Shown in pieces: positions 2,023-6,399 of a stretch of 57,335 nt of DNA. Every line of letters starts with the position of its first letter. Within the stretch, counting starts at the first letter, position 1. Source of the stretch: an uncultured Chromatiaceae bacterium (GTDB taxonomy: Bacteria; Pseudomonadota; Gammaproteobacteria; JAADHS01). The stretch is taken from assembly GCA_945787615.1 (NCBI GenBank), contig CALZJI010000002.1, positions 1 through 57,335 on the forward strand, read 5' to 3'. Under the pieces are notes generated by a model. It was not told the origin of the DNA. It saw nothing but the letters and a program-made list of their open reading frames with translations, and searched no databases. A program made the position numbers and the translations under genes.

Positions 2023-5000
2023 CTAATTGGTGTTATCAAAGGCTGAGTCCCGATTTCTCCTCTTCTTTCCTGTATCCGTCTCTGGCGTCGGCGCGGAATC
2101 ATCAGTCTTCTTACGCGCATTGCCGGCAGACAATAGATCCACAAAAGCGCTGAGACGCTTTGCCAACCATCCCCCTTTTTGCCGCTTAATAAGCTTTTGA
2201 AGTTCCAACGCCGCTCGTTCGTGCGTGATGCGTTGGTTCGCTAAGTCTTTATAGATGCGATCAGCAAATTTTCGCCGCTTTACCGCATCACCGGCGTCCA
2301 GAAAGCCTTCGATGGCCGTTGCCAGCACGGTTATAAATCCCTGTCGTGCTCCGCTACGGGTTTTCGCCCGTGTTTGCTCCATGGCGGATTTTAGATTCGA
2401 TTCGATTATTCGCAATTCGGCTTGAAAGCTCTCCTTTTGTGCAAATAGGGCATTTTTGACGACGTCGATCGTCTCGCTGACGTACTCTTCACATAAGAAT
2501 CCGTATTCCCGATAATTTGCCAACGCTCGCAGGCCCTCCTGGGCTCGGCGCGTATCGCCCCGGGCACCTTTTTTTAACGTGTTTATAATCTTGTCGGAGG
2601 CTCGACGCTGATCTTGATCGGTTTGGCCGAGTCCTGCTCGAAGATCCTGGCACGCGTCATAGCAGGCCTCCCAAGCTTGCCAACGATAAACGAAGTCTAA
2701 TCCAGTACCTTTAATATTTTGCATTCCCATCATGCGGTTATGAAAACCGGGCGGCGTTATTTCGCATATCTTATTAACGATTTCATCACCGCTGAGATAA
2801 GGGTCGCTAATAATGATTAGTTTGCGCTCGAACCATCGCCAAAGCTGCTCGCGGAAACCCTGATTGAGCTTAGAGCGATCCTCCTCCGTCGCCAAAGACA
2901 CTTGTTTTGACAACTCGCAGTACTCGCTATATGCATTGAATCCCTCCTTATAATAACTAACGATTTCCTCTTTATGGGTGAGTCGAAGTCGTTCGAATTC
3001 GTGTTCAACCGATTCCGGTGTGTGCCAGAGTTCTAAAACCCTAGTGAGCGCCGCTCTATCAAGTTGATCGGTCAGCATAGCCTCCAAACGGCCCTTGACA
3101 TGCTGCTCCTTAAACGGAACGCGGAATCGCCAAGCCCAATCGGCCAATAGTTCCTCGGCATCATGGTCCTCCGCGGGTTGCGCGTTTGGCCACAATGTTA
3201 GATCATGAACGAAACGCTCCCAGGCATTGCGGATATAGTTAACAAGCCCGTCCATGTTCGTCCCGATTAGGAAGTGGCGGTCGGCGCTTAAATCATTGAC
3301 GAGAATATTGGCGAACACCTGAGAGCGAGCGATTCGATCAGCTCGGTTATTGACAAGGGTTGTAAGCCACGTTCCAGGGTTTTTTTCGTAATCATGGTCT
3401 GCGAACCCCATCCTTTGCCAATTGTTTAGGCAGCCAAAGCGTTCGTTGGCGGACATGCCGTTTATGAACTCCAAACGACGCCCCCGTAAGGTCGCGACCG
3501 GGTACGCTTTTAACACCCCCAAGTCGAGCACGACACGGTCGGCCATTTCTTTTAGCGCGAAATCGGAGCTGACGCCGAGTTCATCGGCGAGGGTGAGGAC
3601 CAATGCGATGTTGTACGGGTGCTCCTCATAGGGAAAACGTGCCAATATATCCGGGCAAAGAAGCCCGGCCTCCAACCAACCGACCGACCGCGTGCGTGTT
3701 CCTCTGTTTTCGGCGGCTGTTACTAGAATGGGTAGCATCTGCTCTTCCGTGGTCAATAGCACTGACGATTTTGGGATAAAATTCGTCATCACTTCGGGGA
3801 TATTGATACCCGCGGGGCCTTGCAAGTCTTCATGGTCAGGATAAGTGTTGGTTATCGTCGCGATATCATCCCGCACCCACTCGTCTTGTAACACGGAGAC
3901 AAAACTCGGCGTTAGGGCCATACACTCCCATAGAAATACCTCGGACTGTAGCCGGTCGGCAAGCCGCATAATGGCCGCCTGTTCCCAAATCGTTGCCTTG
4001 TCATAGGGCCGGAATAGGAACATTTCGCGAAGTTTGCCATAAGGGGGCGCGTAGAGAAACATGGCTTCGCAGCCCGTGGTTTTTGATACGACGCTGTAGC
4101 CCAATGCGTTCATAAGGGCCGCCTTCAATCGTTCCGTTCCCGATTTTCCCCGCGTGCCCCAGCCACCTAATACCAAGGGTAGACGGTTTCTAACGCGGCG
4201 AATAGCGCGATTGAAGTAAAGATGTTTGCCGACGAAAAGAGCGGTGATTGCCGTGAGAAATACGGCGAGTTGACTAAGGCTGTTTTCGTAAACGGATACG
4301 AAGTAACTTTCCATTCTCGCCCAGAGGTCTGTTTCCGACCAAGGTATTGCTACGGGGAAGAACCGTTGTACCGTTGTATCGACGTTGGGTAGACCCTCTC
4401 CACCGCGAGTATACGGTCGGTGAGCCACTTCTATCCCCAAACGACGTAGTTCGCGTAAGTAAGCGTTAGGTTGGGTTTGATCACCTTCGTGCCAGTTTCG
4501 CAGCTGCGCGTAATAGGAAAAGCGCCGAGTTAACGCAGTACGTGCGACAAATCGTTTGATGAGGGAGCGAGGAGGAACAATCTCAGTAATCCCTTCACTG
4601 GTATAGCAGCGTACCGGCGTTGCGGTGATGCCCTGGTCTAGGCTTGAAATGATCTCGTCAAGTAGCGGTAAATACGGCCGCCACCCTTGCTCACTTGCCA
4701 TAAACAACGGTTCGCCGGGAACTCGGGTTTCGGCCAATTCAGCCATAATGGCGGACGGGGCGTGAACGGTGCCATGGAAAATGCGGCCGGTTGTATGGCG
4801 AAATCCCTGACGCTTGTCGGTGGCGCCATTGCGCATTTCATGCCACAATCGCCAACTCCGAAAGCCAAACGCATGGCCTCTTTTTAATTTTGATTCGAAA
4901 ATTCCGTGCGAGAGTTCCAAGCCGTAATCCGCTTGGGCTATCAACGATAACACGCGCCCTAACGTTTCTTCGCTATGTTGCTTGAGTAAAGCCTTTCGCA

Positions 5001-6399
5001 GTCGCCCTGTCTTCCCAGGAGCGACATTTCTTAGCGCTTCGATTAACGCATCCCTCAGCTTTAAGCGCGCCGGAGATGACTGACACCAAAGATGCTCGCG
5101 CGCCTGAGCCGCCCATCTTCGTACTTCTAGTTTCTCTGCGCGTAGGTTAACGTTGTCGACTTTAGGCGCAATGGCGTCAAACCATGATTGTGCGTCGTCT
5201 AATGCGTCTTTCTGGACAAGAGATAAGTGGATATCTTGCGCGACTTTAAGCGCTACGCGCAAGCAAAAGGAATCACGTTCGTTTTCGAGAACCTGACCAA
5301 GTATACGCTCGCTGAGTTTTATTAACTCTTTCGATACTATCAAGTTGCCGAGTTGCAATACAGCGGCCGCCCGAACTTGCGGTGCGTCATCGATGCAGGC
5401 CAGATACACTATTGATTCCTTGATGTTCTTGTGGGGTGCTTTATTGAGTTCATTGGCGAGTGCCTGGCGAACCGATGAATTGGGATCAAGTCGTATAATT
5501 GGCAGTAGTTTGGCCAGAGCGGGGTGATGCTTTAGGTTTTCGCAAATAAGCTTGACCGCATGGCGCCTGACAAAAAGATCATCTCCCGAAGAAGGTTCGC
5601 TCAACCTACGCGGAAGCACTTTAATGAGCGCGGCGCGCGACAAGCGGGGTAACAGCGAAAGTGCTTCGCATTGTATCCAGACCTCTTGGCGGCGCTCTAG
5701 CGAGAATCGGTAAATAGACTGCAGCGTTGTCTCCGTAACGCTGTCCTCCCTTAGCCTATCGGGCATGGCGCTTAACGCTGTTGCCAAACAACGAAACGTT
5801 GCGATCCGCACTCTTGAATCACCCTCGTAACTCAAAAGCGGCGTTAGGTGGCGTTCCAGCTCTAGCCGCCGCCAATACTGTTGCCTCGAGCGGTCCTCTT
5901 CTCTCTCGTCGCAAAGTAATGAATGTGACCATGCGCCGAGGCGATTTAGGTAGAACGTGAGTCGGCGCTCCGTTTCGATGTGTTGGTGATGATAACGTTC
6001 TACCACTACATCATAGCCAAACCACCGCGAAAACGCGCGGCGGTCGCCGGCAAGTTGGCGCGAAGTGGCACCCAGGTCTTTTGCGAAATCGAGAATATGT
6101 TGCCGACGCTCGCTTTCCATGGCAGCACCGTTGTAACGCCGCGTAAACTCGGCGTAACGTTTCTGGGCCGTTGTGATACGAAGCTGTTCTTTGCGGATAC
6201 GGTCCTTTATGAATTCAATGAGTGTTTGAATGAATTCGGTGCTCTTTCCATCTCCTTTGATCGAAGCTGTATGGTCCTTTTTTTTGGAACGCCAAGCGTA
6301 AAAGTCATTTTTTAAGGCGTCGAGGAGTTTTTTTTCGACGGGAGCGAGTCGAGGGTGAATGCCAAGCGCAAAAATTTCAGTTACAGCAGGCTTAGTCAC
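2023..6399 (-). CDS. Giant (1458 aa) HEAT-repeat protein with a central PgsB/CapB-like (Mur-ligase superfamily) amide-ligase core and a long basic helical C-terminal extension
   Basis: The core spans about aa 700-1100 (nt ~3100-4300). A hydrophobic helix (LSQLAVFLTAITALFVGKHLYF) is followed by the P-loop LVLGGWGTRGKSGT (nt 4135-4167). Further matches are YSVVSKTTGCEAMFLY, WECMALTPSFV, NTYPDHEDLQGP, FINGMSANE and LVNNRADRIARSQVFA. These line up motif by motif with Bacillus PgsB as I recall it (NGIRGKST..., GKTTGTDARMIY, SECMAVNPDY, NVLEDHMDVMGP, FVNGFAAND, MNCRADRVDRTQQFA). The N-terminal ~700 aa carries HEAT/PBS-lyase-like units (DDAPQVRAAAVLQLGNL, DPNSSVRQALANEL, GDSRVRIATFRCL). The GTG start overlaps the upstream gene by 8 nt. 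Confidence 0.85.
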   Translation of the reverse strand: MTKPAVTEIFALGIHPRLAPVEKKLLDALKNDFYAWRSKKKDHTASIKGDGKSTEFIQTLIEFIKDRIRKEQLRITTAQKRYAEFTRRYNGAAMESERRQHILDFAKDLGATSRQLAGDRRAFSRWFGYDVVVERYHHQHIETERRLTFYLNRLGAWSHSLLCDEREEDRSRQQYWRRLELERHLTPLLSYEGDSRVRIATFRCLATALSAMPDRLREDSVTETTLQSIYRFSLERRQEVWIQCEALSLLPRLSRAALIKVLPRRLSEPSSGDDLFVRRHAVKLICENLKHHPALAKLLPIIRLDPNSSVRQALANELNKAPHKNIKESIVYLACIDDAPQVRAAAVLQLGNLIVSKELIKLSERILGQVLENERDSFCLRVALKVAQDIHLSLVQKDALDDAQSWFDAIAPKVDNVNLRAEKLEVRRWAAQAREHLWCQSSPARLKLRDALIEALRNVAPGKTGRLRKALLKQHSEETLGRVLSLIAQADYGLELSHGIFESKLKRGHAFGFRSWRLWHEMRNGATDKRQGFRHTTGRIFHGTVHAPSAIMAELAETRVPGEPLFMASEQGWRPYLPLLDEIISSLDQGITATPVRCYTSEGITEIVPPRSLIKRFVARTALTRRFSYYAQLRNWHEGDQTQPNAYLRELRRLGIEVAHRPYTRGGEGLPNVDTTVQRFFPVAIPWSETDLWARMESYFVSVYENSLSQLAVFLTAITALFVGKHLYFNRAIRRVRNRLPLVLGGWGTRGKSGTERLKAALMNALGYSVVSKTTGCEAMFLYAPPYGKLREMFLFRPYDKATIWEQAAIMRLADRLQSEVFLWECMALTPSFVSVLQDEWVRDDIATITNTYPDHEDLQGPAGINIPEVMTNFIPKSSVLLTTEEQMLPILVTAAENRGTRTRSVGWLEAGLLCPDILARFPYEEHPYNIALVLTLADELGVSSDFALKEMADRVVLDLGVLKAYPVATLRGRRLEFINGMSANERFGCLNNWQRMGFADHDYEKNPGTWLTTLVNNRADRIARSQVFANILVNDLSADRHFLIGTNMDGLVNYIRNAWERFVHDLTLWPNAQPAEDHDAEELLADWAWRFRVPFKEQHVKGRLEAMLTDQLDRAALTRVLELWHTPESVEHEFERLRLTHKEEIVSYYKEGFNAYSEYCELSKQVSLATEEDRSKLNQGFREQLWRWFERKLIIISDPYLSGDEIVNKICEITPPGFHNRMMGMQNIKGTGLDFVYRWQAWEACYDACQDLRAGLGQTDQDQRRASDKIINTLKKGARGDTRRAQEGLRALANYREYGFLCEEYVSETIDVVKNALFAQKESFQAELRIIESNLKSAMEQTRAKTRSGARQGFITVLATAIEGFLDAGDAVKRRKFADRIYKDLANQRITHERAALELQKLIKRQKGGWLAKRLSAFVDLLSAGNARKKTDDSAPTPETDTGKKRRNRDSAFDNTN

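Follow-up and report, generated by a model that had tools for sequence, protein, structure and literature searches.

A PgsB-like ligase joined to a predicted HEAT-like module and encoded in a conserved five-gene cassette of an uncultured Chromatiaceae bacterium

Background

Synthesis of poly-gamma-glutamate has been studied almost only in Bacillus, and the route of the polymer across the envelope is unsettled. In classical PgsB, reporter fusions showed that the first 21 residues were needed for both membrane localisation and polymer production, and that the C-terminus was cytoplasmic (PMC7490850). CapB plus CapC systems have been counted in many phyla, Planctomycetes among them, by a survey of capsules that gave no description of them (PMC5542703). 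Here we report a 1458-amino-acid (aa) protein containing a PgsB-type ligase, encoded on contig CALZJI010000002.1 of an uncultured Chromatiaceae bacterium (assembly GCA_945787615.1; the whole stretch of 57,335 nt that was analysed is called the window), together with the five-gene cassette to which it belongs. A first-pass annotation had proposed a PgsB/CapB-type ligase unit inside a much larger HEAT-type protein, and this was confirmed by sequence and by predicted structure.

Results

A PgsB-type ligase within a 1458-aa protein

The sole NCBIfam family matched by the 1458-aa protein was TIGR04012 (PgsB), which covered aa 716-1057 (E 5.5e-58, 196.5 bits, model positions 4-330 of 380). CapB from B. 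anthracis pXO2 aligned with the ligase at 27% identity over 348 columns (BLASTP, E 2e-33). Apart from TIGR04012, searches of Pfam and NCBIfam at permissive thresholds gave no match for the ligase part or the C-terminal 400 aa, and Mur_ligase_M and Mur_ligase_C of Pfam did not match the protein even at E up to 5. Comparison of the whole protein with the PDB by sequence gave nothing meaningful, and no PgsB structure was present among the PDB sequence matches or the listed fold matches.

Three classical PgsB/CapB proteins and eleven family members were aligned with MAFFT. The family was collinear with the classical proteins from the anchor helix through their last helix, and the signature set GxRGKS, KTTG, xIxEQ, ECM, DH, NGxxAN, NxRxDRxxR and GxxNIxG was present in full and in order. 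The family forms (classical forms in brackets) were GGWGTRGKSG (NGIRGKST), KTTGC (KTTGT), TIWEQ (NIGEQ), WECMAL (CECMAV), NTYPDHEDLQGP (NVLEDHMDVMGP), FINGMSANE (FVNGFAAND), VNNRADRIARSQVF (MNCRPDRVDRTEQF) and NRMMGMQNIKGTG (NRIVYGVGNIHGAA). The P-loop GGWGTRGKSGT had been placed rightly (aa 745-755, nt 4135-4167), and the collinear motifs predicted to follow it were also found, namely KTTGC (773-777), TIWEQ (803-807), WECM (824-827), NTYPDHEDLQGPAG (851-864), NGMSANE (980-986) and NNRADRIARS (1017-1026), the last within LVNNRADRIARSQVFA (aa 1015-1030).

Conservation of the catalytic motifs was scored in sets of 31 and 60 diverse family members. Residues G745-S753, E756, K773, E806, E825, N851, D855 and H856 were invariant, as were N985, E986, N1018, R1019, D1021, R1022, N1228 and G1231. 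A loss of essential Mur-ligase residues beyond the P-loop, which the first-pass annotation had raised as a possibility, was thus not seen: the PgsB signature motifs beyond it were all kept and were invariant in the family.

An AlphaFold2 (AF2) model of aa 480-1458 (mean predicted local distance difference test, pLDDT, 82; predicted TM-score, pTM, 0.70) contained the three-layer central ATPase domain and the Rossmann-like C-terminal domain of a Mur ligase. The best Foldseek matches of this model were MurC (1gqy, E 5.4e-8), cyanophycin synthetase CphA1 (7lgj, E 2.5e-7), folylpolyglutamate synthase (FPGS), MurE and MurT, the last four with probability 1.00. The ligase had been assigned to aa ~700-1100; it is present there, but its end was set too early, as the Mur-ligase fold spans aa 740-1260 overall, with a helical insertion of ~128-170 aa (Table 1). 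In this insertion, about 170 aa (1050-1219, helical at aa ~1065-1192) replaced a 37-aa loop of CapB, and the helical part had no counterpart in classical PgsB. Beyond it, the sequence TPPGxxNRxMGxQNIKGTGLDFVYRWQAWE (in aa 1193-1260) was the counterpart of classical NRIVYGVGNIHGAAEPLI, and the last ligase strand and helix (NRMMGMQNIKGTGLDF, aa 1221-1236) aligned with the C-terminus of classical PgsB.

These results indicated that the ligase part, which is acidic (isoelectric point, pI, 5.3), has a Mur-ligase fold and every PgsB signature motif. Since the protein fails both the score cut-off and the architecture of curated PgsB (~390 aa with an N-terminal anchor), it was filed as a PgsB-like sister family and not as PgsB proper.

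Table 1. Position of the fusion protein, its parts and its neighbours in the window
Feature	Residues	Coordinates (nt)	Strand	Basis or remark
PgsB-like fusion open reading frame (ORF)	1458 aa	2023..6399	(-)	GTG start
All-alpha ARM/HEAT-like solenoid (predicted)	aa 1-456	5032..6399	(-)	AF2, Foldseek; basic, pI 9.5
Alpha/beta "mid" domain	aa 457-682	4354..5031	(-)	AF2, conservation; pI 10.2
Linker	aa 683-707	4279..4353	(-)	Low AF2 confidence; break point of natural split forms
Single long helix	aa 708-739	4183..4278	(-)	Hydropathy, AF2, alignment
Mur-ligase central domain and most of C-terminal domain	aa 740-1064	3208..4182	(-)	TIGR04012, CapB/PgsB alignment, Foldseek
Acidic helical insertion within ligase C-terminal domain	aa 1065-1192	2824..3207	(-)	AF2, alignment
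Strand-helix-strand-helix completing ligase fold	aa 1193-1260	2620..2823	(-)	AF2, alignment, conservation
Basic C-terminal helical bundle	aa 1261-1436	2092..2619	(-)	AF2, conservation; pI 9.9
Disordered, variable Lys/Arg-rich tail	aa 1437-1458	2026..2091	(-)	AF2, sequence
1814-aa protein	1814 aa	6392..11836	(-)	N-terminal signal peptide; C-terminus beta-rich by eye; conserved directly upstream of PgsB-like gene
315-aa ORF	315 aa (297 aa in NCBI assembly)	11833..12780	(-)	N-terminal hydrophobic segment
824-aa protein	824 aa	12716..15190	(-)	N-terminal signal or anchor; strand-rich by eye; conserved cassette member
PgsC/CapC-like membrane protein	1082 aa	15187..18435	(-)	Pfam PF14102 (E 2.1e-41), TIGR04011, phmmer with CapC
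Stand-alone receiver protein	166 aa	18387-18887	(-)	Directly upstream of cassette
CHASE2 histidine kinase	902 aa	18809-21517	(-)	Directly upstream of cassette
Response regulator with GGDEF (diguanylate cyclase) domain		25393-27039	(+)	Near cassette
ORF matching DUF1631 C-terminal third	329 aa	31311-32300	(-)	
Full-length DUF1631 protein	819 aa	32580-35039	(-)	
Protein with spermine/spermidine-synthase-like domain	954 aa	40062-42926	(-)	C-terminal TPR repeats

Modules flanking the ligase

The ~700 aa before the ligase had been described as containing HEAT-like units. In an AF2 model of aa 1-740 (pLDDT 87, pTM 0.82), aa 1-456 were all helical, mostly with pLDDT >90, and this right-handed solenoid of stacked hairpins matched importin-alpha, Vac8, beta-catenin, SF3B1 and CAND1 in Foldseek (E 5e-5 to 1e-3). 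The TM-scores were low (0.2-0.36), as expected between solenoids of differing curvature. Pfam HEAT_2 reached 25.8 bits at aa 296-365, below its cut-off of 27.7, and HEAT reached 16.7 (cut-off 23.5); many homologues carried precomputed matches to PF13646 or PF02985. Judged by the solenoid model, "HEAT-like" fits aa 1-456, but aa 457-682 formed an alpha/beta domain instead.

This mid domain was the best-conserved portion of the N-terminal module (N-module), with the motifs RGHxFGFRxWR..DKRQ..H..GR, ETxVPGEPL and GWRPYLPL and a terminal DPAVxRFF. No sequence match to it was found in Pfam, NCBIfam or the PDB, including a PDB search with a family profile. The fold searches were run with whole models, and the solenoid or the ligase dominated the match lists.

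After the core, ~360 aa of helical sequence had been noted. The helical character held, but the region is not a single tail, being made of an insertion that belongs to the ligase and of a bundle of its own at the C-terminus. The bundle, which classical PgsB does not have, contained the conserved motif EAFLDAGDAVKRRK..IY.DL..ERISHERAA.ELQ.L.KRQKGGWL. The Lys/Arg-rich tail GKKRRNRDS was found as described, the protein ending in GKKRRNRDSAFDNTN. The basic N-module and bundle, which flank an acidic enzyme whose product would be a polyanion, could hold a nascent chain or a membrane surface, or could regulate the enzyme.

The hydrophobic helix and its topology

A single hydrophobic segment (aa ~706-729, Kyte-Doolittle value 1.67) was detected in the hydropathy profile, values elsewhere in the protein being below the threshold of 1.5. 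As no other segment reached 1.5, there was no N-terminal signal-peptide core, and the single helix and missing signal peptide reported at first were both borne out. Most relatives likewise had only one hydrophobic segment. The N-terminal half of the helix was hydrophobic (LSQLAVFLTAITALFVG) and its C-terminal half basic (KHLYFNRAIRRVRNR). In the MAFFT alignment it took the position of the N-terminal membrane anchor of classical PgsB, yet here it is internal. The preceding stretch, from RFF to YFFSVY, was 20 residues long in most of 60 sequences (median 20) and was rich in aromatics and prolines (RFFPaxlPf....W....D-YFFSVYENSL).

An insertion free energy was estimated by crude summation over the best 19-residue window, with the Hessa biological hydrophobicity scale. 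The values were +3.2 for the helix of the window protein and +3.0 +/- 2.0 for the family (60 members); for the anchors of B. anthracis CapB, B. thuringiensis PgsB and Cetobacterium PgsB they were -1.1, +0.2 and +5.1, respectively. The flank before the helix was acidic (net ~-2) and the flank after it strongly basic (~+6), so that the helix, if it were a membrane span, would be N-out.

Three observations speak for a cytoplasmic N-module and against a simple N-out span for the helix: its marginal hydrophobicity, the lack of a second hydrophobic segment in most members, and the existence of free N-modules without a signal peptide (see below). The topology puzzle raised by the first-pass annotation is thus a real one. 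The better supported reading, which agrees with what that annotation had suggested, is that the helix serves as a membrane tether, peripheral, re-entrant or embedded in a partner, with both of its ends reaching the cytoplasm.

In some lineages, such as those of P0074 (Candidatus Competibacter), L060, L070 and L076, the linker before the anchor helix was longer and included an extra hydrophobic stretch (e.g. APLLAGHIPLLAVIPFG). Such an extra stretch could form a helical hairpin, giving an N-in/C-in topology.

Fused and split forms

A search of 5.8 billion proteins gave at least 120 full-length relatives (1319-1477 aa, 46-55% identity), with conservation extending over the whole length of the protein. 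Some were labelled PgsB/CapB by JGI, and at NCBI they were named HEAT-repeat or hypothetical proteins. When one genome per species was scanned, relatives were found in at least 483 species, the carriers including members of the Alpha-, Beta-, Gamma- and Zetaproteobacteria, Desulfobacterota, Planctomycetota, Verrucomicrobiota, Hydrogenedentes and Nitrospirae. Cultured carriers included Methylovulum miyakonense HT12, Halomonas daqiaonensis, Vreelandella massiliensis, Marinobacter daqiaonensis, Ramlibacter rhizophilus, Belnapia moabensis and Desulfocicer vacuolatum. The isolate of Vreelandella massiliensis had two PgsB-like copies (L054 and L075) on two contigs, each with cassette neighbours.

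The 80 best species-genome loci were ranked by full-length similarity, which favours fused forms. At least 600 in-frame codons preceded the P-loop in 72 of them; six of the remaining eight reached a contig end, one (L078) had 542 codons bounded by a stop, and one (L037) had a mismatch to the P-loop pattern. No split form was found in this list, which is biased to fused forms. An identical 1458-aa protein was called in NCBI assembly GCA_947259325.1 (contig CAMYMM010000001.1). The suspicion that a mis-assembly or frameshift had joined separate genes was thereby removed: the fusion is genuine, and ORF 2023-6399 is one polypeptide.

Split forms were detected when aa 1-700 were searched against 1.84 billion cluster representatives. 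There were 558 matches (299 with E <1e-30), most of ~1400 aa, and at least 20 of the top 150 representatives were proteins of 670-690 aa matched through their own C-terminus. All eight free N-modules inspected had a natural stop a few residues past DPAVxRFF, and none had a signal peptide. In locus L083 the free N-module gene came after a 1787-aa relative of the 1814-aa protein, and its stop overlapped the start of the next gene, whose product began MLSFQEFWPRIQDYFFSVYENSLYDLALFTAASLAYFLGKHLY..GGWGTRGKSGTER. The ligase genes of L083 and of a second locus, L090, opened with ..DYFFSVYENSL, followed by the helix and then GGWGTRGKSG. The downstream ligase gene of L090 was complete, encoding 752 aa with 53% identity to aa 689-1422 of the window protein.

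These results indicated that fusion is the common state and fission a natural variant. Because the N-module and the ligase are fused in most members and are adjacent genes elsewhere, the usual gene-fusion logic implies that they act together, and because a free gene of ~680 aa without a signal peptide precedes the ligase gene, the N-module is a separable and almost certainly cytoplasmic partner.

A conserved five-gene cassette

The PgsB-like gene was the last of five genes on the same strand, tightly packed or overlapping, in the order PgsC-like, 824 aa, 315 aa, 1814 aa and PgsB-like. By tblastn the order was kept in ~50 of the 80 loci, that is, in most of those with enough upstream sequence, and these spanned Pseudomonadota, Desulfobacterota and Planctomycetota. 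The GTG start of the PgsB-like gene and the stop of the upstream 1814-aa gene shared 8 nt (GTGACTAA), and a Shine-Dalgarno-like AAGGAA stood 8-9 nt before the GTG, an arrangement that fits translational coupling within an operon. Scans for promoters and terminators at the operon ends gave counts equal to those of shuffled sequence.

The 1082-aa PgsC-like partner postulated for the ligase does exist and carries the CapC domain, but it is not an adjacent gene, lying three genes upstream of the PgsB-like gene. It had two tandem CapC repeats (aa ~23-176 and ~209-302) and ~12 hydrophobic segments up to aa ~365. Its C-terminal domain of ~700 aa was internally duplicated (YVIDKQARDYFAIEVPAPL..AGARRNANPDGSADV and YVFRLGSANNYVIQAPRPL..AGAHPRANLDGSSDV) and had no Pfam or NCBIfam match at permissive thresholds; the PgsC-like protein gave no meaningful PDB match.

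The 824-, 315- and 1814-aa proteins each had an N-terminal hydrophobic, signal-like segment. They gave no Pfam or NCBIfam match and no meaningful PDB match, family profiles having been tried for the 315-aa protein and for the C-terminus of the 1814-aa protein. In the 315-aa family (homologues L004-L082) the motifs LQAPHxxxDxxTG, QLHGF, ELGGTTN and GFxHLE were shared, and H138, D142, H209, H285 and E287 were invariant. The conserved H-x3-D...H...E pattern hints at a metallohydrolase, and the protein is a candidate for such an enzyme in the periplasm. A PghP-type polyglutamate hydrolase (PF05908, E 0.096) was considered for this protein and rejected, as the match occurred in only 1 of 20 family members. 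The 1814-aa protein is a candidate periplasm-spanning or outer-membrane export component.

Directly upstream of the cassette were genes for a CHASE2 histidine kinase and a stand-alone receiver protein. Among the 80 loci (tblastn) the kinase stood next to the cassette in six others, and receiver matches occurred in up to 11. An overlap of 49 nt between the receiver ORF and the PgsC-like ORF, as counted from the listed GTG of the latter (18435), means that the true PgsC-like start may be located further downstream.

In the window, a GGDEF-domain response regulator was encoded close to the cassette. Strong matches to it were found near the cassette in L014 (14559-16175), L072 (16337-19058) and L081, and weaker ones in about six other loci. 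These neighbours hint at control by cyclic-di-GMP, as in polysaccharide secretion systems, and the association may be due to chance because GGDEF genes are abundant. No PilZ or other receptor domain for cyclic-di-GMP was detected. Elsewhere in the window there was a full-length DUF1631 protein followed by a 329-aa ORF that matched only its C-terminal third and is possibly a partial duplicate, and a 954-aa protein with a spermine/spermidine-synthase-like domain and TPR repeats.

Discussion

We think it probable, with an assurance not far above even, that the protein is an active ligase polymerising glutamate or a close analogue, that the product is exported by the cassette across a diderm envelope, and that the N-module is a cytoplasmic accessory. 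The ATP-dependent ligase would act at the cytoplasmic face of the inner membrane, where it would be held by the weakly hydrophobic helix packing against or into the duplicated PgsC-like protein. Glutamate or a close analogue would be joined into a gamma-linked polyanion, which would pass through the PgsC-like protein, be acted on by the 824-aa and 315-aa proteins in the periplasm and be taken across the outer membrane by the 1814-aa protein. The basic N-module would be a cytoplasmic accessory subunit whose task is either to hold the chain as it grows or to control the ligase. The whole would amount to synthase-dependent, trans-envelope secretion of a poly-amino acid in diderm bacteria. A bolder form of this proposal, which we offer tentatively and would rate at somewhat less than an even chance, is that the cassette is the first machine of this kind in outer-membrane bacteria and that its N-module gates the PgsB-type ligase, with, for example, a second messenger or the glutamate supply as the signal.

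Several points weigh against a polyglutamate exporter of this design. The TIGR04012 score is below the NCBI curated cut-off of 222.7 bits, and with only 27% identity to CapB the substrate could differ. Pairwise phmmer searches detected no relative of B. anthracis CapA, CapD or CapE or of Cetobacterium PgsW in the cassette, and no glutamate racemase was found among the window proteins scanned. That the 1814-aa protein acts in the outer membrane, and the 315-aa protein as a hydrolase, is read from sequence patterns only. A helix inserted N-out would put the fused N-module outside, which cannot be squared with a 680-aa module that has no signal peptide. We found no experiment or paper linking the family to any polymer.

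Some of these points would be explained if the same machine carried out another chemistry, making a different polyamide or attaching amino acids to a glycan, lipid or peptide acceptor. Mur-ligase folds serve many substrates, and the giant, uncharacterised extra domains of the family would then reflect another substrate. The low PgsB score, the distance from CapB and the missing CapA, CapD, CapE and PgsW relatives suit this explanation, as do the systematic motif shifts (GGWGTRGKSG for NGIRGKST, PDHED for EDHMD and SANE for AAND). However, PgsB was the only NCBIfam family matched, and the motifs KTTG, xIxEQ, NxRxDRxxRxxxF and GxxNIxG, which we take to be PgsB-specific rather than general Mur-ligase features, are kept in common with CapB/PgsB. 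The partner protein, moreover, has the CapC domain twice (Pfam E 2.1e-41), and to our knowledge this domain is known only from polyglutamate systems. We regard a different chemistry as unlikely, though as a rival to be taken seriously.

It is far less probable that the helix is an ordinary N-out/C-in transmembrane span, with a periplasmic N-module of 700 aa acting on the exported polymer. Neither the fused protein nor any of the eight free N-modules inspected has a signal peptide, and we know of no precedent for 680 residues crossing a membrane without one. The positive-inside rule (N-flank ~-2, C-flank ~+6) and the position of the helix at the classical anchor would fit such a span, and a basic N-module could bind a polyanion outside as well; against this, the helix is only marginally hydrophobic and the 20-residue linker, with its aromatics and prolines, suits an interfacial segment.

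That the protein is only a scaffold, its ligase domain being a degenerate pseudo-enzyme, is scarcely credible, since the P-loop Lys and Ser, the WECM Glu, the DH pair and NxRxDR were invariant in 31 to 60 diverse sequences and the ligase fold was predicted with high confidence, whereas the case for it consists of the failure of Pfam Mur_ligase_M to match and the interruption of the C-terminal domain by ~128-170 aa. An assembly or frameshift artefact joining two genes, to which the split versions of other lineages might have pointed, is already refuted by the same fusion in hundreds of independent assemblies (including isolate genomes), by the conserved length and sequence of the linker and by the identical protein in a second assembly.

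Among the carriers are methanotrophs, sulfur-oxidising symbionts, large sulfur bacteria, wastewater Competibacter and marine halophiles. Should the product be polyglutamate, many Gram-negative environmental bacteria would make an overlooked anionic polypeptide matrix, and cultured strains would allow its export route and regulation to be studied. Fused and split forms that occur naturally can help to show which enzyme parts touch one another and the membrane. The cassette is widespread and apparently undescribed: no description of the fused architecture or of the five genes was found in the literature. An eLife "lipocone" paper was retrieved by a text match to "capc" through "CapCone" only and is unrelated.

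Comparison with known systems

Mur ligases and FPGS share with the ligase the fold of the central ATPase and C-terminal domains, the P-loop and the acidic and DH motifs. They differ in that the present protein has no UDP-binding N-domain and is membrane-tethered, with accessory modules.

Cyanophycin synthetase CphA1 is soluble, combines an ATP-grasp with a Mur-like domain and leaves its product in the cytoplasm; extra domains of the same polypeptide hold the growing polymer. CphA1 was among the best structural matches and, like the enzyme proposed here, makes a non-ribosomal poly-amino acid with a Mur-ligase-like domain, but beyond the Mur-like fold the two sequences showed no detectable similarity.

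The synthase-dependent systems that secrete cellulose (Bcs), PNAG (Pga), alginate (Alg) and Pel in diderm bacteria resemble the proposed machine in the logic of their gene clusters: a polymerase that faces the cytoplasm and sits on a conduit in the inner membrane, periplasmic proteins that are secreted, and one very large protein with a signal peptide, with two-component or GGDEF regulators nearby in several loci. The analogy is functional only, the polymerase here being an ATP-dependent amide ligase and not a glycosyltransferase, and no TPR, porin, PilZ or other family of these systems was detected in the cassette (Pfam, NCBIfam, PDB).

Cetobacterium somerae (Fusobacteria) has a Gram-negative PgsB/PgsC system (PgsB-PgsC-PgsW) which, like the present one, has no PgsA and has a weakly hydrophobic PgsB anchor. 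Its PgsB (376 aa) and PgsC (142 aa) are small, in contrast, and it has neither a HEAT module nor large periplasmic or outer-membrane candidates. On plasmid p1 of this species (L086, 4543-5502) the annotated pgsB-pgsC-pgsW operon adjoins a succinylglutamate desuccinylase gene.

The closest likeness is to PgsB/CapB of Bacillus, which shares the hydrophobic helix directly before the P-loop, the collinear motifs, the Mur-ligase fold and an operon with a CapC-domain membrane protein. No relative of PgsA/CapA, PgsE or CapD was found by pairwise comparison. The classical enzyme has ~390 aa and an N-terminal anchor, whereas the present one has 1458 aa and an internal, much less hydrophobic helix, with the addition of a 680-aa N-module, an insertion of ~128-170 aa and a 200-aa basic C-terminal bundle. 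Its partner, unlike that of PgsB/CapB, is a duplicated PgsC-like protein of 1082 aa. Here the PgsB/PgsC catalytic pair is built into a much larger apparatus that is widespread across phyla.

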